This document shows, one piece after another, positions 1 through 15,411 of a DNA stretch of 15,411 nucleotides. The notes beneath the pieces are model-generated. The model saw only the letters and a list, made by a program, of their open reading frames with translations, ran no database searches and was not told the DNA's origin. Source of the stretch: a virus (taxonomy: Duplodnaviria; Heunggongvirae; Uroviricota; Caudoviricetes); IMG/VR virus record IMGVR_UViG_2802429249_000004, positions 1 to 15,411 of that record; one strand, written 5' to 3'. Made by a program: the position numbers and the translations under genes. Position 1 is the first letter of the stretch; each line of letters starts with the position of its first letter.

Positions 1-1215
1 ATGCTGCTTTCAGACCTTGCTATCAGACGCGCGAAGCCGAAAGAAAAGGCTTATACGCTCAATGACGGTAACGGGCTTTCGTTACTCATTGAGCCGAACG
101 GCTCGAAAGGGTGGCGACTACGTTACAGGTTTGCAGGAAAGCCCAAAATGTTGTCATTGGGCGTGTACCCTGATGTGTCTCTGTCTGATGCCAGGGCGGC
201 AAGGGATGAGGCTAAAAGGCTTCTTGCTGGTGGTATAAATCCAAGTGAGGCCAGAAAAGCCCAAAAGCGAGAACAGGCGAGCAAATTTGGCAATACTTTT
301 GAGGGTATCGCTCGCGAATGGTACGAAAAGCGGATCGACAGGTGGTCATCGTCATACGCCGAGGAAATGATCGAGACGTTTGAAAAAGACGTTTTTCCGT
401 ACATTGGCGGTAGGCCGATCGCAGAAATTAAGCCGATGGAATTGCTGGCGGTTCTTTCCCGTCTTAATGACCGTGGTGCGACTGAAAAATTGCGTAAGGT
501 TCGCCAGCGATGTGGCGAGGTGTTCCGGTACGCAATCATCACCGGACGCGCCGAATATAATCCAGCCCCTGACCTGGTGAGCGCATTTGCTCCACATAAA
601 AAAGAGCATTACGCCTATCTGAAGGCCGACGAACTGCCGGAATTTTTCCGCGTTTTTAATACGTACACCGGAAGCCAGATCGTCAAACTGGCAATGCGGC
701 TATTAATTCTGACAGGTGTCAGACCCGGGGAATTACGGCAGGCAGAATGGCGGGAGATCGATTTTGATAATCGTTTGTGGGAAGTGCCTAAAGAACGAAT
801 GAAGATGCGCCGTCCGCATTGTGTGCCATTACCAGAACAGGCGATAAAAATACTGGAGCAGTTAAAAAACATGACAGGCCAGTATCAGTTTATTTTCCCC
901 GGTCGTATTCACCACAGTAAGCCAATGAGTGAAATGGCGATGAATGTACTCATTCGTCGTATTGGCTACGCCGGGCGCGTCACTGGTCATGGATTCCGGC
1001 ACACCATGAGCACCATTTTGCATGAACAGGGCTATAACACTGCGTGGATAGAAACACAGCTTGCGCATGTTGATAAAAACTCAATTCGTGGCACGTACAA
1101 CCATGCGCAATATCTGGATGGTCGCCGGGAAATGCTCCAGTGGTACGCCGACTATATGGATTCGCTTGAGCATGGCGGAAATGTTGTTTACATAAAATCT
1201 GAAAAATTAAATTGA
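1..1215 (+). CDS. int: Site-specific tyrosine recombinase, P4-type integrase
   Basis: 404-aa ORF. N-terminus LSDLAIRRAKPKEKAYTLNDGNGLSLLIEPNGSKGWRLRYRF matches the P4/IntA integrase family arm-binding region. C-terminal catalytic signature GHGFRHT (H-x-x-R box) and RGTYNHAQY (tyrosine nucleophile region). ATG sits exactly at position 1, so the true start could lie upstream. Confidence 0.9.
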   Translation: MLLSDLAIRRAKPKEKAYTLNDGNGLSLLIEPNGSKGWRLRYRFAGKPKMLSLGVYPDVSLSDARAARDEAKRLLAGGINPSEARKAQKREQASKFGNTFEGIAREWYEKRIDRWSSSYAEEMIETFEKDVFPYIGGRPIAEIKPMELLAVLSRLNDRGATEKLRKVRQRCGEVFRYAIITGRAEYNPAPDLVSAFAPHKKEHYAYLKADELPEFFRVFNTYTGSQIVKLAMRLLILTGVRPGELRQAEWREIDFDNRLWEVPKERMKMRRPHCVPLPEQAIKILEQLKNMTGQYQFIFPGRIHHSKPMSEMAMNVLIRRIGYAGRVTGHGFRHTMSTILHEQGYNTAWIETQLAHVDKNSIRGTYNHAQYLDGRREMLQWYADYMDSLEHGGNVVYIKSEKLN

Positions 1216-1245
1216 TTACATTGATATTCTTATATAGGTGATATC

Positions 1246-2154
1246 ATGCTTCCTGAAAGATTGTTTTACACTCTGAATAAAGCAGCTTTTGAGATAAATA
1301 GAGATGTTTATGATTTATTTCACTATATATCAATCGGAATGGTTGATGTAGCAATAAATATAGACTTGTCAGATCTTATTGAAGAAGGAAGGGTCTCTGT
1401 TCGTGGTAAATTTAATAAAGAAATATTTACTAATACAAGAAGTAAAAAATTCAGACATCGCTCTAACTATGCAAAAATAAGTGAAGTTATTAGTTGCGAA
1501 TCTAATGGAAAGTTAAAACATAGAAAAGTCATTAAGGCATGTGGTCTTTTTTCTGTCCGAACATCCAATCTTTTTAAGATGGATGCTGATTTTGATAACG
1601 TGAAAGAATTTGTTGTTGATAGGCTATATCCAGTGAGGCTTCCATCTTTTACGCACTATAACTTGGAGGATTATAACCCACGAGTAATTTTAATTGATGG
1701 TGGTATAAATATTAAAACAAGCGATTTAGTTATAACTAAAAGTGAATTATTTTTGCTTAAAAATGGTGGAGTGACAATAAATTGGAGATTAAACCAAGTC
1801 AAATCATCTATGGATAAGTATCCCGATTTTATTAAAAGTAAAATGGATGGGGGAAATTCACGTAGTTGCGAAACAATTAACAAAATGGTGGGTAAGCCTA
1901 GAAATATCTATCGAAATGTTATTGTTGATGTAGCGAAAGCTACTCGTATTTCTTATCCGTGGAGCCATACGACATTAATTATCAATAAAATACACTCCTT
2001 GCTTTATTCTGTTGATGCTGTTAATACACCTAAAGTAGGTACAATTAGAAATATTCTTTGTTCAGAAGGAATTGGCAAAACAGGAGTGGAAACAAAAGAT
2101 GATTTCCGCTTGGTTATCCCAGAGGAGTACAGAAAATTATTTAAATTGAATTAA
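1246..2154 (+). CDS. Hypothetical protein, AT-rich orphan cargo gene (no recognisable domain)
   Basis: 302-aa ORF with SD-like AGGTGA 5 nt upstream of ATG. Codon composition is strikingly AT-rich (many AAA/AAT/ATT/ATA codons) compared with the flanking integrase and alpA. No competing ORF. Confidence 0.7.
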   Translation: MLPERLFYTLNKAAFEINRDVYDLFHYISIGMVDVAINIDLSDLIEEGRVSVRGKFNKEIFTNTRSKKFRHRSNYAKISEVISCESNGKLKHRKVIKACGLFSVRTSNLFKMDADFDNVKEFVVDRLYPVRLPSFTHYNLEDYNPRVILIDGGINIKTSDLVITKSELFLLKNGGVTINWRLNQVKSSMDKYPDFIKSKMDGGNSRSCETINKMVGKPRNIYRNVIVDVAKATRISYPWSHTTLIINKIHSLLYSVDAVNTPKVGTIRNILCSEGIGKTGVETKDDFRLVIPEEYRKLFKLN

Positions 2155-2252
2155 ATTGTATTTAATTTAAATTTTAATATTTAATTTAAAAAATACATCC
2201 TTCTCTTGTGTATATTCCAGAAACAGACTTTTATATGCATCAGGAGAAGTGT

Positions 2253-2453
2253 ATGGATAAGCAAAATTTAATTCGTATGCCAGAAACCATGCGCCGTACA
2301 GGCTATGGTAGGGCATGGATCTATAAACTCATTGCCCAAGGGCGTTTTCCTAAACCTGTAAAAATTGGCTCGCGAGCGATTGCTTTCGTTGAGAGTGAAA
2401 TTGATGAGTGGATTAATCAGCGTATTGCGGAATCACGCGGAACAGCTACCTGA
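2253..2453 (+). CDS. alpA: AlpA-family phage transcriptional regulator / excisionase-like HTH protein
   Basis: Sequence MPETMRRTGYGRAWIYKLIAQGRFPKPVKIGSRAIAFVESEIDEWINQR matches the AlpA/Vis family pattern (TG-x-x-R-x-TIY..., EIDEW). Start chosen at ATG 2253 because AGGAGA lies 6 nt upstream; the ORF track begins at 2208. Confidence 0.85.
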   Translation: MDKQNLIRMPETMRRTGYGRAWIYKLIAQGRFPKPVKIGSRAIAFVESEIDEWINQRIAESRGTAT

Positions 2454-2531
2454 TTAAATGGCTACGGGGCCAGAAGCCCCAGCTATCCACCAGCAAATAA
2501 AAAGTAACTTAATTCGATAGCAGGAGTTTTT

Positions 2532-3332
2532 ATGAAACTGCGAAAAACGCCCGTACAGGGGCAGGGCTTCGTTCGGCCTGAAAACCAGAATCTGCAAAAT
2601 TTCGGCGAAATTATCCCGATTATTTCCGGCGTTATTGGCGGGAGTGAAACCACTATTGTTAGCGCCAGAGCGTTACATAAGGCGTTAGGTGTAGGGCGCG
2701 TTTTCCGTTCGTGGATCAAGGGGCGCATTGAAGAATACGGGTTCACGGAAGGCGTGGATTATGAGGTTGTTGAATATTTGAGCCGACCCGATCCGGTGAG
2801 CGCAAAATCTCGCCAGCAAACCGCTCTTGAGTACATCATCACAGTGAACATGGCAAAAGAACTGGCGATGGTCGAACGCACCGAACAGGGCCGCGCCGTT
2901 CGTCAGTACTTCATCAAATGCGAGGAGGAGCTACACAAGGTAGCGCCAGTGCGTTCCGCAGCGTTACGCCGGGAACTGAAAGCCCGTATCACAGTTGCCA
3001 GCTACTTTAAGCCAATGTGTGCCGCGTTGGAGGCGTACCGGGCTGAACTGGGTAAAAACACGTTCCAGCACCACTACACCACGGAAGCCAATATGCTGGC
3101 GCGTATCGTGCTGGGTGGCATGACTGCAAAACAGTGGGCGCAGGCGAACGGCATCACAGGCGAACCACGCGACCACATGAGCACGTTGCAGCTTGAGCAC
3201 CTTTCTTACCTTGAGCAGAGCAATATCACGCTGATTGAGTTAGGCCTGGACTACCACCAGCGGAAAGCTGAATTAATTCGTCTTTCGCAGCGTTGGTTAG
3301 CCCGTCGCATGGAGGAAAACAGCCATGTGTAA
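2532..3332 (+). CDS. Phage antirepressor-like protein (AntA/AntB-type N-terminal domain)
   Basis: 266-aa ORF with AGGAG 5 nt upstream of ATG. Segment ARALHKALGVGRVFRSWIKGRIEEYGFTEGVDYEV resembles the AntA antirepressor domain consensus (..F..WIK.RIEEYGF.EG.DY). Assigned from memory of the family pattern, not searched. Confidence 0.55.
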   Translation: MKLRKTPVQGQGFVRPENQNLQNFGEIIPIISGVIGGSETTIVSARALHKALGVGRVFRSWIKGRIEEYGFTEGVDYEVVEYLSRPDPVSAKSRQQTALEYIITVNMAKELAMVERTEQGRAVRQYFIKCEEELHKVAPVRSAALRRELKARITVASYFKPMCAALEAYRAELGKNTFQHHYTTEANMLARIVLGGMTAKQWAQANGITGEPRDHMSTLQLEHLSYLEQSNITLIELGLDYHQRKAELIRLSQRWLARRMEENSHV

Positions 3333-4004
3333 CGCTCTGACCGTTACAAAAAGAGAAAGCGCCCCGTTGCCGGAGCGCCTTTGTGAACGAATAGCCTACT
3401 GCGCCATATTGCTTACTGTCTACGAGGCAGATTATAGCGTTGTGGTCGCACAGAGTGAAGGCGCTGATCACCGTTACTACAGCACGCCAGAAATGCAGAA
3501 TATTTTGCTGCAAAATGTCGTTGGTCACGCTGTCCGGAAAGCAAAAAATTTTGCTGGTAGCGCGACTGATGCGATTTTGTCAGGTCGCCAGGTGATGATC
3601 AATCTGATGTCTAATTTCGTTCTGGATAAAACAAAGGCGACCGCAGAGGGCCACCAGTGGGAAAGCTACACACTTGAACACATCGCCAACAATGCCAGAT
3701 TTGCGGCTGGTGGGCAATGTGATCAGTGTGCTGGCTTGCTGGTGGGCTATTCCTGCTCTTTAACATTGCCATGCCGCGATGTTTTCCAGGTATGCGACCC
3801 CATTTTTGTGCGCCTGTACTCTTTAAGGAATTTCTCAAGGATAAACGCACAGGGCGCGAATCTGTCTGACTCATATTCGTACGCTATCTTTCTGCGCTGT
3901 CTTTTCCGTGCCGGTGATGGTGTATTGGTTGATTCTTTGTTGGTCATTCTGTGTACCTGTAAAGCAATGCGCCGGAGTTCCTCACACCACGGCGATGATA
4001 GTTA
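3325..4004 (+). pseudogene. Stop-free frame beginning at an ATG overlapped with the antirepressor stop (CATGTGTAA); possible degraded or fused gene, 3' end undefined
   Basis: Start motif and first residues (MCNA...) mirror the coupled junction at 4856 (MCNA...). The first ~150 codons have protein-like composition. The frame then runs without a stop through the antisense of gene 4005-4310 and the promoter region into gene 4498-4863 (512 codons), with Cys/Ser-rich low-complexity translation in the middle. Confidence 0.25.
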
Positions 4005-4310
4005 TTATTCTGATTCTTTGGCCTTGCGGCGCTGGAGTTCTTCACGTGCGACGGTGACGAGTTGCCCGATCTCCTCGACAGCTTTGACTCCGATTTTTTC
4101 CACCTGCGCCAGTGCATTGAGCGAAGAAACCAGGGGATTTTCTCCGCTTCCTTCTGCCTGGCGGCGGGCGATCTCACCACGCATGGCGGTTACTATGAAT
4201 CCGGCGTTGCTTTCGCCGTCCAGTTTTACGGATTCCATGCCTTCAAAAGCATCATGTGGGATACGAATTGAAATCTGTTTTGATTTGTCGTTGATAGTGT
4301 TTTTTGCCAT
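4005..4310 (-). CDS. Small putative DNA-binding regulator (possible repressor of the divergent early operon)
   Basis: 101-aa ORF on the minus strand: MAKNTINDKSKQISIRIP...ELQRRKAKESE. AGGAGA lies 6 nt upstream of ATG (start 4310), and there is a double stop TAA TAA. It is divergent from the 4498 operon and shares the operator-bearing intergenic region. The ORF track lists it as 4005-4349 from an earlier ATG. Confidence 0.7.
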   Translation of the reverse strand: MAKNTINDKSKQISIRIPHDAFEGMESVKLDGESNAGFIVTAMRGEIARRQAEGSGENPLVSSLNALAQVEKIGVKAVEEIGQLVTVAREELQRRKAKESE

Positions 4311-4330
4311 GTGCATTCTCCTAAACAAAA

Positions 4331-4410
4331 GATGTGATTCAGTATACACAAAAAAGAATCACAAAAAATACTTGACCTGTGATTCAGTTAAATTTAATTT
4401 AAATCACACC
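4331..4410. promoter_or_regulatory. Divergent promoter/operator region: two dyads TGTGATTC-N14/15-GAATCACA overlapping a sigma70-like promoter (-35 TTGACC 4372-4377, -10 TAATTT 4395-4400)
   Basis: TGTGATTCAGT at 4334-4344 and 4378-4388 (direct copies). Inverted partners GAATCACA at 4357-4364 and AATCACAC at 4402-4409. -35/-10 hexamers with 17-bp spacing upstream of gene 4498. Confidence 0.5.
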
Positions 4411-4497
4411 TCAGTAAGAGGATGTAAACGACAACGCCCCGAACTGTTTGCGGCAGTAGCGGGGCGTCTAACCAAACCGTTAAATGAGGTAACGATT

Positions 4498-4863
4498 ATG
4501 GCTGGGGCACAGCATACCCAAACTCACCCTAAATTTATATACACCTTCCTGGCGGTGCACCGTGATTGCATGGCTGACGGTAAAAACACTGTTCATGTAG
4601 CCGCCGATACGCTGGTTGATGCCTGCGAGATGCTCAATGACATGGGCTATATCTCGGCAACATGGAAAGGGCGCGAAGAAAACACGTTGTTTATTCAGAA
4701 ATGCGAAAACAATTTTATCTGGCGTTTTATCGCCCTGAGTACGGCACAACCGCGCGTGATTCACATCGAGGCCACCAGCGAACAGGAAGCACGCCAGCAA
4801 TCTCCTGATGGCTGCGTGATGGTATTCGCTGCCCATATTCGCCAGGAGGTGGAGCATGTGTAA
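4498..4863 (+). CDS. Hypothetical protein (first gene of early operon)
   Basis: 121 aa. GAGG 8 nt upstream of ATG 4498. Stop overlaps the next start (CATGTGTAA). Confidence 0.65.
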   Translation: MAGAQHTQTHPKFIYTFLAVHRDCMADGKNTVHVAADTLVDACEMLNDMGYISATWKGREENTLFIQKCENNFIWRFIALSTAQPRVIHIEATSEQEARQQSPDGCVMVFAAHIRQEVEHV

Positions 4864-5080
4864 TGCAACATGGCCTGATGCAGCGGTAGACGCTATCAAA
4901 ACGCTGATGGATTCACTTATTGAGATTTCTGCTATCGCTGGTGTGGCGCATAAACACGCAGCCAGAGAATCAGAATGCATCTCCCATTATTTAGCATTTG
5001 TGCAGCTGAAAGCCGATCAGGCACTGGATAAGGCCGGAAAAATTATCATGGCTGATGTGCAGGAGGTGCACCATGCATAA
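4856..5080 (+). CDS. Hypothetical small protein
   Basis: 74 aa. Start overlaps the upstream stop (ATGTGTAA). Stop overlaps the next start (ATGCATAA). Confidence 0.6.
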   Translation: MCNATWPDAAVDAIKTLMDSLIEISAIAGVAHKHAARESECISHYLAFVQLKADQALDKAGKIIMADVQEVHHA

Positions 5081-5438
5081 CCTGTCAATTTCTGACCTTA
5101 ACAGCATTCAGTTTGACGAGAAATTTACCGGGCAGCTACTGGTCAATGTGGAGAATGGACGCGTGGTAAGTAATTATCACCTGCCGGATGGTGCAATTGC
5201 CGGAAGCGTTGAAGCATTGCTGGAGCTGGCAGAACGTGCGCGACTGATTAAGCCGTTAACGTGCCATCACGATGATAATCTGCATTTTACCGGACGCATG
5301 GTGAGTCACTACGAAAACGGCGTTGAAGTATCCTGCGAACGTCTGCGTGATGATTGCTGTTTCGGCACATTGCCGGAATTTATCGAATTGCTGACCAGTT
5401 GCGGTTATCAGGTCATTCAGGGGGGGAAACATGCGTGA
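5073..5438 (+). CDS. Hypothetical protein with internally duplicated ~50-aa FTG-motif domain
   Basis: 121 aa from ATG 5073, with AGGAGG 6 nt upstream; the ORF track starts at 5055. Two internal repeats (FTGQLLVNVENGRVVS...GSVEALLELAERARLIKPL and FTGRMVSHYENGVEVS...GTLPEFIELL) and paralogy with gene 5657-5857. Confidence 0.65.
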   Translation: MHNLSISDLNSIQFDEKFTGQLLVNVENGRVVSNYHLPDGAIAGSVEALLELAERARLIKPLTCHHDDNLHFTGRMVSHYENGVEVSCERLRDDCCFGTLPEFIELLTSCGYQVIQGGKHA

Positions 5439-5664
5439 TGATCGTTTTAATTCCCTGAAACAGGAGTTTGATGGCGCACCGGAAGATACATCGGGCGCAT
5501 TGTTGAACGTTGCTGACATGATGAAAGCTGCATATTTTCTTATCAATACCAATGGCTACAAGTCAGAGGGTGAAATGATTCTTAGTATTGCGTCGGACTA
5601 TGCGGAATATGTGGCAGAGGCGCGTTACAGAAGAAAATTCACGGAGGATATAAGCCATGCATAA
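5431..5664 (+). CDS. Hypothetical small acidic protein
   Basis: 77 aa. Start overlaps the upstream stop (ATGCGTGA). Stop overlaps the next start (ATGCATAA). Confidence 0.6.
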   Translation: MRDDRFNSLKQEFDGAPEDTSGALLNVADMMKAAYFLINTNGYKSEGEMILSIASDYAEYVAEARYRRKFTEDISHA

Positions 5665-5857
5665 TCATGAAGCGCATGTACCCGTAGTGCTTAATGTGCC
5701 AGATGATTTCACCGGACGCGTACTGGTTTACCTGGATAAAGGGAAAGTGAAATCACAACGCCGACTGAAAAGTAATGAAATTTTGGGTTCTCCTGAGTTT
5801 TTTTCTGAACTCTGTATTCGTGCAGAAATAAAACCGGAACTGCTGACAGGAAAATAA
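5657..5857 (+). CDS. Hypothetical small protein, single-copy paralog of the FTG-motif domain
   Basis: 66 aa, MHNHEAHVPVVLNVPDDFTGRVLVYLDKGKVKS...GSPEFFSELCIRAEIKPELLTGK. Aligns by eye with both halves of gene 5073-5438. Confidence 0.6.
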   Translation: MHNHEAHVPVVLNVPDDFTGRVLVYLDKGKVKSQRRLKSNEILGSPEFFSELCIRAEIKPELLTGK

Positions 5858-5861
5858 AACC

Positions 5862-6152
5862 ATGAAAAAGAAAAATTCTGGCTTTACTGCCAGCGGTCTC
5901 TCTCGGCCTGAAATCAGACACGGAGATATTTACCGCGACACCATACGTGGGGGACGAGCGGTTATTTGTCATGTTACGCCAGAAAATATCACCTACCGCC
6001 GTGACGCTTATGAATATGACTGCATAATGCCGTGCCGTCAGTTTGAGCGTGATTTTATTCTGGTGGAGAACAAACAACAGGAAGCGACGAGACGTGCAGC
6101 CATGAATATTAAAAAAATCCGGGCAATGTTGGTTGCGGGAGGTAAGAAGTGA
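5862..6152 (+). CDS. Hypothetical basic protein
   Basis: 96 aa. Stop overlaps the GTG start of the primase (GTGA), consistent with translational coupling. Confidence 0.55.
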   Translation: MKKKNSGFTASGLSRPEIRHGDIYRDTIRGGRAVICHVTPENITYRRDAYEYDCIMPCRQFERDFILVENKQQEATRRAAMNIKKIRAMLVAGGKK

Positions 6153-7954
6153 AAAACGCACCGAGTCTAAAATATCAGCCGAAGGATAAATTCACTGAGG
6201 TAATCATTTTTGCCGGGACGGATGCTTACGCCCATGCTCAACACTGGATTGAAAGTGAAGGACGAAAACACGGCGATAACGTGCCTCCTGTTTACCTGGG
6301 GCCAAAGCAACTGGCAGACCTGGCGAATATCCGCATTATTGACGAGAAACGCCGTTTTGCGCGTGTCTATATCGCGGGGGAGATAGAGCCAATCCAGATC
6401 AATACTATCGCTGAAAAGCTGGCGCTGGCTGGCGTACAGGACGCGAAATTATACAAAGGTATCACCGACCGGGAGCCGGAAAACTGGCGCGACTACCTGC
6501 AACGGATCCGCGAACAGGCAGAGAGTGGGGAAGTTTCAGCGATGAAATTAGCCACAAAAAATATTGACCTACCCAGGCCAGCACTAAATCAGATGGGAGC
6601 CAGCCAGAGAGGGGAAGTGTTACTTGAATATTATGGAAGAGCACTGGCTATAAATGATGATTCTGATGTAGTTCACCATTACAACGGAATTGTCTGGGTG
6701 CCTGTATCTGATAAGGAACTCCAGCGGTCTATGGCGAAGATTTTTATTGATGCTGGAATCAGTTATTCGCAAAACGCCATTAAATTTGCCGTAGACACAA
6801 TGAAATTGAGCCTGCCTGTTATGGGCGGGGCAGACAGGAATCTTATTGGATTCAGTAACGGGGTATTTGATACCCGGACGGGAAATTTTCGGGAGCATAA
6901 CAAAAATGACTGGTTGTTAAATGCCAGTGAATTACCGTTCAGCCCACCAGCAGAGGGGGAAACGCTGGCAACACATGCGCCGAATTTCTGGAAGTGGCTG
7001 CGTCGTTCGGTGGCAGATAATGATCGTAAAGCTGATCGCGTACTGGCGGCATTATTCATGGTACTGGCGAACCGGTACGACTGGCAGTTATTCCTTGAGG
7101 TAACAGGCCCAGGCGGAAGCGGTAAAAGTGTGATGGCTGAGATTTGTACCATGCTGGCGGGTAAGGCCAACACAGTATCGGCAAGCATGAAGGCTCTGGA
7201 AGACGCAAGGGAACGCGCGTTAGTAGTTGGCTTTTCGCTGATTATCATGCCGGATATGACTCGCTACGCTGGCGATGGTGCAGGAATTAAGGCAATTACT
7301 GGCGGCGACAAGGTGGCAATTGATCCGAAACATAAAGCCCCCTACTCCACACGTATTCCGGCAGTAGTGCTTGCGGTAAACAATAACGCCATGTCATTCA
7401 GTGACCGAAGCGGGGGGATCTCGCGTCGTAGGGTGATATTTAATTTCTCTGAGGTCGTACCGGAGAACGAACGCGATCCCATGCTGGCGGAAAAGATAGA
7501 AGGCGAACTGGCGGTAGTGATTCGCCATTTGCTAACACGATTTACCGACCAGGACGAAGCTAAAAGACTACTTTATGAGCAGCAAAAATCAGAAGAAGCG
7601 CTGTTGATAAAGCGCGAAGGTGATTCACTGGTGGACTTTTGCGGCTATCTGATGTCGTTGGTTAAATGTGAAGGAATGATGGTGGGCAATGCGGAAATAG
7701 TGCCATTTAGCCCGAGGCGATACCTGTATCATGCTTATTTAGCCTATATGTCAGCGCATGGCCTGGGAAAACCAGTATCACTGACACGCTTTGGTACTGA
7801 TATGCCAGGAGCTATGGCGGAATACGGAAAGGAGTATAAGCGGGCTAAATGCACTAAAGGCCCGGATAAAGGGCGAGTGATAACAAATGTTCTGTTAGAT
7901 GATGATGCTGATGGCTGGTTGCCAGCAGCTACAGGGATTAACGACAGAACATAA
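6149..7954 (+). CDS. P4 alpha-like primase/helicase (phage/plasmid primase P4-family C-terminal domain, D5-type P-loop NTPase)
   Basis: 601 aa. Walker A GPGGSGKS, with downstream segments typical of P4-family primase C-terminal/D5 NTPase proteins. GTG start with GGGAGG 6 nt upstream. Iteron cluster immediately downstream. Confidence 0.8.
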   Translation: MKNAPSLKYQPKDKFTEVIIFAGTDAYAHAQHWIESEGRKHGDNVPPVYLGPKQLADLANIRIIDEKRRFARVYIAGEIEPIQINTIAEKLALAGVQDAKLYKGITDREPENWRDYLQRIREQAESGEVSAMKLATKNIDLPRPALNQMGASQRGEVLLEYYGRALAINDDSDVVHHYNGIVWVPVSDKELQRSMAKIFIDAGISYSQNAIKFAVDTMKLSLPVMGGADRNLIGFSNGVFDTRTGNFREHNKNDWLLNASELPFSPPAEGETLATHAPNFWKWLRRSVADNDRKADRVLAALFMVLANRYDWQLFLEVTGPGGSGKSVMAEICTMLAGKANTVSASMKALEDARERALVVGFSLIIMPDMTRYAGDGAGIKAITGGDKVAIDPKHKAPYSTRIPAVVLAVNNNAMSFSDRSGGISRRRVIFNFSEVVPENERDPMLAEKIEGELAVVIRHLLTRFTDQDEAKRLLYEQQKSEEALLIKREGDSLVDFCGYLMSLVKCEGMMVGNAEIVPFSPRRYLYHAYLAYMSAHGLGKPVSLTRFGTDMPGAMAEYGKEYKRAKCTKGPDKGRVITNVLLDDDADGWLPAATGINDRT

Positions 7955-7981
7955 TACGAAATTTATAAGCTGAAACGTAAA

Positions 7982-14481: not shown

Positions 14482-15411
14482 ATGCCTATTCCAGCGAAGG
14501 ACAATTTGCTAAAAAGAATCCTGTCTGTAGATAATGCAACTCAACTACCAGCACTTATCGATAAAGATGTTATGCAGGAACAACACAATATCACAGCTAA
14601 TCTTCTGAGAAAAGGCTTAGGTATAGTAGCATTTAATATTCTGGAAGATTTTATAAAATCCAGAACTATAGAAATGTTTGATTTTATATCTAATGCACGT
14701 GTGAGATTCGAGCAGTTACCCGATTCTTTTAGAATTGCAGCAACAAATGGTGCATTAAGAGGATTAGTATATCAGGCTGGATTAGAAAAGAAAAATAATG
14801 GAGATTGGTTGGCACTAATACATTCTGAGGCCAAAAGTATTTTTTCAACGTCGCAATTTCCTTATACATTATCTCGAGTATCACTTCTTTCAGATGGTTC
14901 TAATGTTGGACATGATGATATACCAGAAGTAATGAAGTGTCTTGATATAACTGGTGGGTGGAAGACATTACAAAAAATATCGAACGATATTGGTGGTGGT
15001 ACATTAGATCTGAATGCTGCTTATAAAAATATGTTTTTCGATAGAAATAGATGTGCTCATGAAGCAGGTTTTAATTATCCATATACCTCTCTCGATAATT
15101 CTTTAAATGACATTGTTACTATTGCTTCTGCATTTGACATAGCGTTAACTACTCGTTGCAGGTATATAGAAAAACAACCTAATTTACCGCTTTCAGCTCA
15201 TAAAGAAAAAGATCCGTTTTCATATCGGTTTTTAATCGCTGATGGAGATGTTTTTCGAGAGAAAAAATCATTAGAACCTGGTGCGAAAACAATAAAAAAA
15301 TGGAGTAATATCTCTGATGCACAATCTAATTTAATTCCTAAGCTAAGACTCCGCGATGAGTTTTTGATTTATATAGGAAAACAGAGAAGGCTTAGTGATT
15401 GGTATTTGTGA
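14482..15411 (+). CDS. Hypothetical protein, operon partner of the DUF262 protein; weak HEPN-like R-x4-H motif
   Basis: 309 aa. ATG lies 1 nt after the upstream TAA, so the two are tightly coupled. Same AT-rich composition. Motif RNRCAH at aa 188-193. Stop TGA falls at the window end. Confidence 0.7.
   Translation: MPIPAKDNLLKRILSVDNATQLPALIDKDVMQEQHNITANLLRKGLGIVAFNILEDFIKSRTIEMFDFISNARVRFEQLPDSFRIAATNGALRGLVYQAGLEKKNNGDWLALIHSEAKSIFSTSQFPYTLSRVSLLSDGSNVGHDDIPEVMKCLDITGGWKTLQKISNDIGGGTLDLNAAYKNMFFDRNRCAHEAGFNYPYTSLDNSLNDIVTIASAFDIALTTRCRYIEKQPNLPLSAHKEKDPFSYRFLIADGDVFREKKSLEPGAKTIKKWSNISDAQSNLIPKLRLRDEFLIYIGKQRRLSDWYL

Follow-up and report, generated by a model that had tools for sequence, protein, structure and literature searches.

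We examined the intergenic region around positions 4331 to 4410 of a 15,411-nucleotide viral DNA (IMG/VR record IMGVR_UViG_2802429249_000004, positions 1 to 15,411; hereafter the window). Judged by its genes, the window is a satellite island of ~15 kb, i.e. a Gram-negative phage-inducible chromosomal island (PICI) of the EcCICFT073 type located at tRNA-Thr. The region lies between a leftward gene encoding a 101-amino acid protein of the YlcI/YnfO family (the regulator) and a rightward operon that starts with an Icd-like gene and includes a primase gene, and it carries two inverted repeats, O1 and O2. These dyads are most likely, as judged from sequence comparison, the binding sites of the neighbouring small protein, which is predicted to contain a ribbon-helix-helix (RHH) domain. 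We propose that this protein occupies four sites spaced by ~22-23 bp, that it is a repressor of the Icd-like/primase operon and that it controls its own gene, a reading to which we assign a probability of about 0.7. The sequence features, their conservation and their co-variation with the N-terminus of the regulator were observed, and the fold was predicted.

Dyad O1 (4333..4363) consists of TGTGATTC (4333-4340) and GAATCACA (4356-4363), with arms complementary at 8/8 positions, and dyad O2 (4378..4408) consists of TGTGATTC (4378-4385) and AAATCACA (4401-4408), with 7/8 complementary positions and an A in place of G as first base of the last arm; both are strand-neutral and have a 15-bp spacer. 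The initial annotation had recognised the two dyads, although with coordinates one base too high (4334-4364 and 4378-4409), spacers of 14 or 15 bp and GAATCACA instead of AAATCACA as second right arm. When the 31-bp dyad pattern was searched with up to three mismatches, two matches were found in the 15.4-kb window versus 0.07 expected, and none of 200 shuffled windows reached two. The octamer occurs in exact form three times in the window, each time inside the 76-bp operator stretch, and octamers with one mismatch showed no enrichment in the window (22 vs 14.6 expected). The O1 and O2 units are also direct repeats 45 bp apart, in which TGTGATTCAGT and AATCACA each recur. The centres of the four half-sites lie at 4336.5, 4359.5, 4381.5 and 4404.5, i.e. 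steps of 23, 22 and 23 bp with alternating orientation; whether one speaks of two dyads or of four phased sites, the arrangement is the same. A 9-bp perfect palindrome resembling fused half-sites, GTGATTCAC, was also seen inside the Icd-like gene (4756-4764) and may be due to chance.

The dyads are superimposed on two predicted back-to-back promoters. The rightward promoter, that of the Icd-like/primase operon, comprises a -35 element TTGACC (4372..4377, plus strand), whose TTGAC is nearly invariant among the 29 related loci compared below, and 17 bp further a -10 element TAATTT (4395..4400, plus strand), with TAnnnT found at the same spacing in most loci. The -35 element sits between the dyads and abuts the left arm of O2, and the -10 element is located within the O2 spacer; O2 thus extends over the spacer between these elements, the -10 itself and the expected start site, its right arm covering ~ -7 to +1. 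Directly 5' of the -35 lies an A-tract (4364..4371, plus strand) that is possibly UP-element-like, and AAAA..C before TTGAC is kept in all classes of the 29-locus alignment. On the minus strand, the O1 spacer contains TATACT (4341..4346, read from 4346 to 4341), which is probably the -10 of the promoter that drives the regulator gene leftwards: a -10-like hexamer (TATACT, TATAAT or TATATT) occurs at the aligned minus-strand position in 24 of the 29 loci, whatever their repeat class. The regulator gene itself (4005..4310, minus strand) starts at ATG 4310, 22 bp from O1, and is preceded 6 nt upstream by a Shine-Dalgarno sequence, AGGAGA (4317..4322, minus strand), read from the sequence. A simple sigma-70 scan of the window reported neither the rightward nor the leftward promoter, the former because TAATTT matches TATAAT at only 3/6 positions; the promoter calls are therefore based on conservation across loci, most of which display the TTGACN-17/18-TAnnnT arrangement. 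The placement of TTGACC and TAATTT with a 17-bp spacer, the distance of about 20 bp to the minus-strand gene and the overlap of operators with promoters, all claimed in the initial annotation, were confirmed, with sites lying where a bound protein would block both promoters.

RHH domains (Arc/MetJ/CopG) are built of ~45 residues forming a beta-strand, helix A and helix B, and the antiparallel beta-sheet of the dimer contacts the bases, so that the side chains of the beta-strand determine specificity. The AlphaFold2 model of the regulator (22 homologues, predicted local distance difference test score 79.7) displayed an extended N-terminus, helices at residues 19-28 and 35-55 and a long helix at 59-100, and its predicted N-terminal ~55 residues likely match RHH domains best. 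Family assignment was clear: the match to NCBIfam NF041551 (YlcI_YnfO_N) scored 64.9 bits (cutoff 30; E 5e-18), with residues 9-50 covering all 42 positions of the model; the identical protein in RefSeq is named YlcI/YnfO family protein, and the corresponding PHROGs, phrog_6522 and phrog_949, are both of "unknown function". The motif QISIRIPHDAF carries the Arc/Mnt R-x-P-x-[DE] pattern, and some sources call homologues CopG or Arc-like. Profile comparisons were far less clear: hhalign aligned QISIRIPHDAFEGM weakly to the beta-strand/helix A segment of Mnt (probability ~1 %), PF07704 remained sub-threshold (E 0.026, 15.9 bits vs a cutoff of 28.3; 13 of 22 homologues match it at E<=5), RHH chains were absent from the matches of a sequence-profile search of the PDB, and none of the helix-turn-helix families of Pfam matched. 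A resemblance of residues 45-86 (LxSSLDALxxVExIGxKAxEEI) to the helix-hairpin-helix of Hef (E 0.0097) was not relied on, the model showing one continuous helix.

The evidence linking protein and sites came from the comparison of 29 distinct loci from ~10 genera (Escherichia, Edwardsiella, Serratia, Klebsiella, Enterobacter, Erwinia, Xenorhabdus, Photorhabdus, Raoultella and Dryocola), the set including Edwardsiella, Serratia, Klebsiella, Salmonella and E. coli metagenome contigs. They share a common layout. Next to the regulator gene, which occupies one strand, comes a pair of sites around the conserved (A/T)TATAC, then an A-tract and TTGAC; of the next two sites, one precedes the AT-rich -10 and the other follows it, and beyond them lie a structured leader and the Icd-like gene. 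Both -10 elements, the -35, the A-tracts and the leader hairpin are constant across classes, and the arms are variable. Each class of arms goes with its own N-terminal beta-strand in the regulator. Arms TGTGATTC accompany KQISIRIP or RQISIRIP (class A, to which the window belongs) in E. coli, Edwardsiella, Serratia and Klebsiella; TGTGTTTC accompanies QLTTVRVP (class B) in E. coli, Xenorhabdus and Photorhabdus; TGTAAGAC or TGTAAGCC accompanies QSLTARIP (class D) in E. coli, Enterobacter, Edwardsiella and Klebsiella; TGGTATTC accompanies QQLNARFP in E. coli (L028) and a metagenome contig (L027); and palindromes of the GTGTACAC type accompany QMKNIRFP in E. coli and Salmonella loci.

Half-site identity reached 96 % for pairs of loci with an identical beta-strand 9-mer versus 50 % for pairs with different 9-mers. 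A Mantel test, in which relatedness was ignored, gave r = 0.45 between half-sites and beta-strand 9-mer, a value that none of 5000 permutations reached, and the C-terminal half of the regulator showed no correlation with the half-sites (r = -0.05). Two Edwardsiella loci (L020 and L022) amount to a natural domain swap: the C-termini of their regulators are near-identical, their N-termini differ, and their sites are TGTGATTC vs TGTAAGAC. As the sites share one sequence within each locus, the four of them must change in concert, which goes beyond linkage alone. Within class A, O2 is identical at 31/31 positions in E. coli, Edwardsiella and Serratia, for 69 % nucleotide identity in the regulator gene and 41-50 % in its 5' untranslated region, and O1 is 87-94 % conserved in the loci of Edwardsiella, Serratia and Klebsiella. 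The suggestion of the initial annotation that the small divergent protein is the regulator gained indirect support as far as recognition of the dyads is concerned, through the RHH-like predicted fold and the tracking of repeats with the N-terminal beta-strand.

Several variations on this scheme were observed. At the position equivalent to regulator residue 12, Leu goes with half-sites TGTG... (L011, L012, L015) and Met with TGTA... (L004-L010, L017), L009 being a partial exception; this co-variation with half-site base 4 would fit a base contact made by a residue of the beta-strand. In the class-A loci L020 and L021 of Edwardsiella, O2 is followed after ~14 bp by a fifth half-site that is intact (GATGTGATTCAG), of which the equivalent position of the window (4421-4430) holds a degenerate remnant only (GATGTAAAC); an extra site after O2 was also seen in several other classes (L014, L015). 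Finally, short regulators of 59-63 residues (L011, L012, L019 and L035, i.e. EcCICFT073) are devoid of the C-terminal helix, and their loci carry self-palindromic 10-11-mer sites (e.g. GTGTTCAACAC), not widely spaced pairs of arms, which suggests that they may bind in a different oligomeric mode.

From these data we infer binding, oligomeric state, repression, autoregulation and a link to AlpA as follows. Dimers of the regulator would reach into the major groove of the four 8-bp sites with their paired N-terminal beta-strands (~residues 11-17, KQISIRI), and the long C-terminal helix would probably join dimers into higher oligomers, as in Mnt, leading to cooperative filling of the sites. With O2 occupied, the Icd-like/DUF4222/primase replication operon would be silenced and the island would remain quiescent, and O1, which encloses the probable -10 of the leftward promoter, would mediate negative autoregulation. 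Induction would have to overcome this block, probably downstream of AlpA, the essential activator of induction that is switched on by the helper phage (PMC6092414, PMC11773190). AlpA is also toxic when overexpressed. Derepression might come about through direct antagonism at the promoter, through something encoded by the alpA-antA unit, or through transcription that converges on the regulator gene; AntA shows no co-variation with the form of the regulator, a weak argument against a dedicated AntA-regulator pair.

A number of points weigh against this proposal. The N-terminal codons are located ~25-70 bp from the repeats, so that co-inheritance in one recombination block adds to the association, and the Mantel test was uncorrected for relatedness. 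The leftmost site is degenerate in some classes (e.g. class C and CFT073). Both promoters and their start sites are predictions from sequence, and the -35 of the leftward one is poor, a T-tract with no recognisable hexamer. On the protein side, the Pfam scan of the regulator returned nothing at E<=0.01 and no RHH family over threshold. Published genetics of EcCICFT073 and EcCIMP1 explain induction by AlpA without a repressor (PMC6092414, PMC11773190), and our proposal was built from sequences and a predicted fold.

Four other explanations were considered. The one that survives best, though we regard it as unlikely, holds that the protein does bind the dyads and that its true role is to autoregulate a unit formed with the neighbouring gene orf66, e.g. 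in the manner of an RHH antitoxin, any effect on the replication operon being incidental. The small basic open reading frame orf66 (3747..3947, minus strand; phrog_21027, function unknown) is downstream of the regulator gene, co-directional with it and followed by minus-strand terminator-like sites at 3655-3636 and 3381-3356, and it is probably the second gene of the leftward unit, judging from its homologues, which lie directly 3' of the regulator gene in all E. coli loci examined, whatever the repeat class, including EcCICFT073 (L035, 8243-8416). However, the loci of Edwardsiella, Serratia, Klebsiella, Xenorhabdus and Photorhabdus, which keep the same operators, yielded no homologue of orf66 at E<=1e-3 (1.5-3 kb of flank covered); orf66 gave no toxin-family match, and the best-conserved dyad, O2, covers the -35, -10 and +1 of the rightward promoter and not the leftward one.

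Slightly less probable is that the protein binds these sites as an activator of the rightward promoter, or in an architectural role, and not as a repressor. Some small DNA-binding proteins of phages and satellites both activate and repress, the -10 is weak (3/6), and the 22-23 bp phasing together with the conserved A-tracts suggests wrapping of DNA. The geometry is nevertheless that of classical occlusion: the promoter has a -35 close to consensus and a normal spacing, the sites occupy its 17-bp spacer and its -10/+1, and no site lies upstream only, as a class I or class II activator would need.

Recognition of the dyads by another factor, be it AlpA, the Icd-like protein, AntA, the initiator of replication or a host factor, e.g. 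CRP, appeared very improbable. AlpA, which had been named in the initial annotation as an alternative binder, is the known regulator of these islands (PMC6092414), the Icd-like protein matches PHROG families labelled "transcriptional repressor", and TGTGA...TCACA resembles CRP half-sites. Repeats nevertheless differ between loci in which these proteins hardly do: AlpA proteins 92-97 % identical accompany three repeat classes (L016, L018, CFT073), AlpA, AntA and orf66 are each 97 % identical between the window and L019, and the Icd-like proteins of the window and L014 are 97.5 % identical. As for CRP, the motif here is TGTGA-N21-TCACA, not the N6 spacing of a CRP site, and a host factor cannot account for class-specific arms that become TGTAAGAC, TGGTATTC, GTGGGCCAC, etc. 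in related islands of the same host species. The repeats of the putative origin differ from the dyads in both sequence (GGTAGACAGTT) and place (7966-8320, after the primase gene), which argues against the dyads being origin iterons.

Lastly, a chance or non-functional origin of the repeats, conceivable in a region of 25-30 % GC where short repeats are common, is effectively refuted by the conservation data, given two matches against 0.07 expected, an O2 identical in three genera and four sites that change together.

Compared with known systems, the proposed switch would be in kind a classical pair of RHH repressor and operator. Its logic and domain layout come closest to those of Mnt/Arc and of the CopG/omega replication controls, and its genetic role to that of Stl/Rpr of Gram-positive PICIs. 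Mnt and Arc (phage P22 immI) are small RHH proteins controlling an operon divergent from their gene through operators over back-to-back promoters, and Mnt combines an N-terminal RHH domain with a C-terminal helical tetramerisation domain, as the predicted RHH and predicted C-terminal helix 59-100 of the regulator might do. The pattern x-R-x-P-x-[ED]-[hydrophobic] aligns IRIPHDA of the regulator with FRMPMEV of Mnt, but the proteins share no significant sequence similarity (hhalign ~1 %, no Pfam Arc/RHH match). The array described here further comprises four 8-bp sites over ~76 bp whereas Mnt/Arc use one 17-21-bp operator, and the controlled operon would be a satellite replication module led by an Icd-like gene instead of ant. 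CopG (pMV158) and omega (pSM19035) are RHH repressors of replication-operon promoters, the latter binding cooperatively to arrays of short direct or inverted repeats that cover promoters. The regulator resembles them as a putative RHH protein on a replication-operon promoter and, for omega, by its repeat array; it belongs to another sequence family, copG is co-transcribed with rep and not divergent, and the heptads of omega are contiguous, not 22-23 bp apart.

Like Stl/Rpr, which control SaPIs and other PICIs of Gram-positive bacteria as master repressors (PMC6092414), the regulator is encoded divergently from the replication/packaging operon of a satellite, as presumed silencer until the helper is active. 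In Gram-positive PICIs, however, int lies on the side of the repressor, whereas int-alpA-antA converge here on the regulator gene; Stl is derepressed by a helper protein binding to it, whereas the known input here is helper-induced AlpA. The fold predicted here is RHH-like with no Pfam helix-turn-helix match, the comparison with Stl/Rpr covering genetic position and role. The name-giving proteins of E. coli K-12, YlcI (DLP12) and YnfO (Qin), share the N-terminal 42-residue domain, with an NF041551 match well over the cutoff, and short forms of 59-63 residues also occur in PICIs including EcCICFT073. The K-12 proteins have no C-terminal helix, and ylcI lies beside nohD in the late region of a lambdoid prophage rather than next to an Icd-like/primase operon; the sequence upstream of K-12 ylcI showed no similar array of repeats. 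This gene is annotated only as encoding a DUF3950 domain protein, and the literature found lists YlcI/YnfO just as prophage-associated. Finally, the position of the Icd-like gene, first in the early operon after a structured conserved leader, recalls the immI system of P1 (c4 RNA-icd-ant) and the CI RNA of P4, and C4/isrK matches were reported in some Gram-negative PICIs (PMC10111431). In contrast, the window gave no C4/isrK match, and control appears to be of the protein-operator type.

In the PICI literature, AlpA is called the master regulator, and the existence of a repressor in Gram-negative PICIs was stated to be unclear (PMC6092414). Our literature search retrieved no account of a YlcI/YnfO protein as PICI repressor, subscription journals being mostly outside its coverage, so an earlier description is possible. 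The "immunity switch" put forward in the initial annotation exceeds the evidence, the published AlpA being an essential activator and a repressor being uncertain (PMC6092414). A tentative generalisation, which we hold to be slightly less probable than its contrary, is that YlcI/YnfO-family RHH proteins are the master repressors of EcCICFT073-type PICIs, counterparts of Stl/Rpr occurring in many "immunity classes". Beta-strand and all operator sites would change together between classes, as in the immunity regions of lambdoid phages, and helper-induced AlpA would overcome the repressor directly or through the genes it switches on. For the uncharacterised YlcI/YnfO family, sequence-specific DNA binding is the likely function. 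Gram-negative PICIs are widespread satellites by which virulence and defence genes are mobilised, and their control is described only via AlpA in the literature found. A candidate repressor-operator pair on the promoter of the replication operon, present as well in the model element EcCICFT073, could explain how the islands stay silent and what AlpA must overcome, and it makes this open question of satellite biology testable in a model element. The natural specificity classes might also be used as orthogonal repressor-operator parts.

The identification of the island relied on gene set and order, which correspond to the published organisation of Gram-negative PICIs (PMC6092414, PMC10111431): int, AlpA (PF05930), AntA, regulator, Icd-like, DUF4222, primase, iterons, ProQ/FinO and PerC. 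Islands of the EcCICFT073 type run from int through alpA and a variable Bro/Ant zone to a replication module with primase and ori and on to late genes, and they integrate at a specific att site; roughly 1300 E. coli genomes, as well as other Enterobacterales, carry the module. The stretch 3900-4900 is 99.6 % identical to a segment of E. coli K56-43-un adjoining tRNA-Thr, after proA, and the island adjoins tRNA-Thr in NZ_CP053079; a search of a phage collection revealed no close relative of this region. On the plus strand, the integrase gene (1-1215), alpA (2208-2453) and the gene of an AntA/AntB-type protein (2532-3332) precede the convergent regulator gene. The rightward operon starts with the Icd-like gene (4498..4863; 121 residues, NCBIfam NF033153 at 3.8e-22), whose ATG at 4498 is preceded by a Shine-Dalgarno GAGG (4486-4489), and continues over 4856..7954 with four small open reading frames (4856-5857), DUF4222 (5862-6152) and a D5/P4-type primase-helicase (6149-7954) that ends it; gene order in this operon is equal in related loci. 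The strand-neutral iteron array that follows (7966-8320) contains more than 10 copies of GGTAGAC[A/C]GTT in both orientations, flanking an AT-rich core directly after the primase gene, and is likely the replication origin. ProQ/FinO (8326-8868) and PerC (8865-9152), both on the plus strand, precede the late and cargo genes (after 9152). The prototype EcCICFT073 has the same gene order, with its own 59-residue YlcI/YnfO gene divergent from the Icd-like gene and GTGGGCCACAC repeats directly after TTGACG and after the -10.

Between promoter and first gene, the leader (4407-4497) is structured and kept across all repeat classes, and it could be a second, RNA-level layer of control. It contains a GC-rich hairpin, ACGCCCCG...CGGGGCGT (4434-4467), followed by the invariant CTAACCA (4468-4474), the whole element spanning 4434..4474 on the plus strand. 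RNAalifold retrieved 8 pairs in this hairpin, 4 of them with compensatory changes. A smaller hairpin, CGTTA/TAACG (4478-4494), presents the Shine-Dalgarno of the Icd-like gene in its loop. None of the Rfam families reached threshold for the leader, C4, isrK and CI RNA gave no gathering-level match over the whole window, and the C4/isrK models matched nothing at E<=10 in 4250-4950 nor at E<=5 in 3250-4010. Permissive searches of the leader and of the antA-regulator gap yielded only sub-threshold hits at chance level, an R1162 antisense-like match of 19 bits (E 1.1) and ctRNA_p42d at 15 bits.

An open frame of 512 codons (3325-4863, plus strand) runs antisense to the regulator gene and crosses the operators into the Icd-like gene. 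In other genomes, RefSeq gives some Icd-like proteins an N-terminal extension whose frame crosses the operators (L014, 2882-3454; L019, 2784-3188), and in L001 it labels the Icd-like gene a truncated pseudogene. Such an extension looks like an annotation artefact because conservation starts only at ATG 4498, the homologue in L014 being 97.5 % identical from residue 1. Finally, just after the antA stop, the minus strand carries a promoter-like TTCACT-17-TATAAT (3459-3431), which is followed ~50 nt downstream by a strong terminator hairpin (3381-3356; stem of 11 bp and T-run). The segment 3346-3459, for which Rfam returned no match, could encode a small RNA of ~75 nt on this strand or simply be a bidirectional terminator between convergent units.
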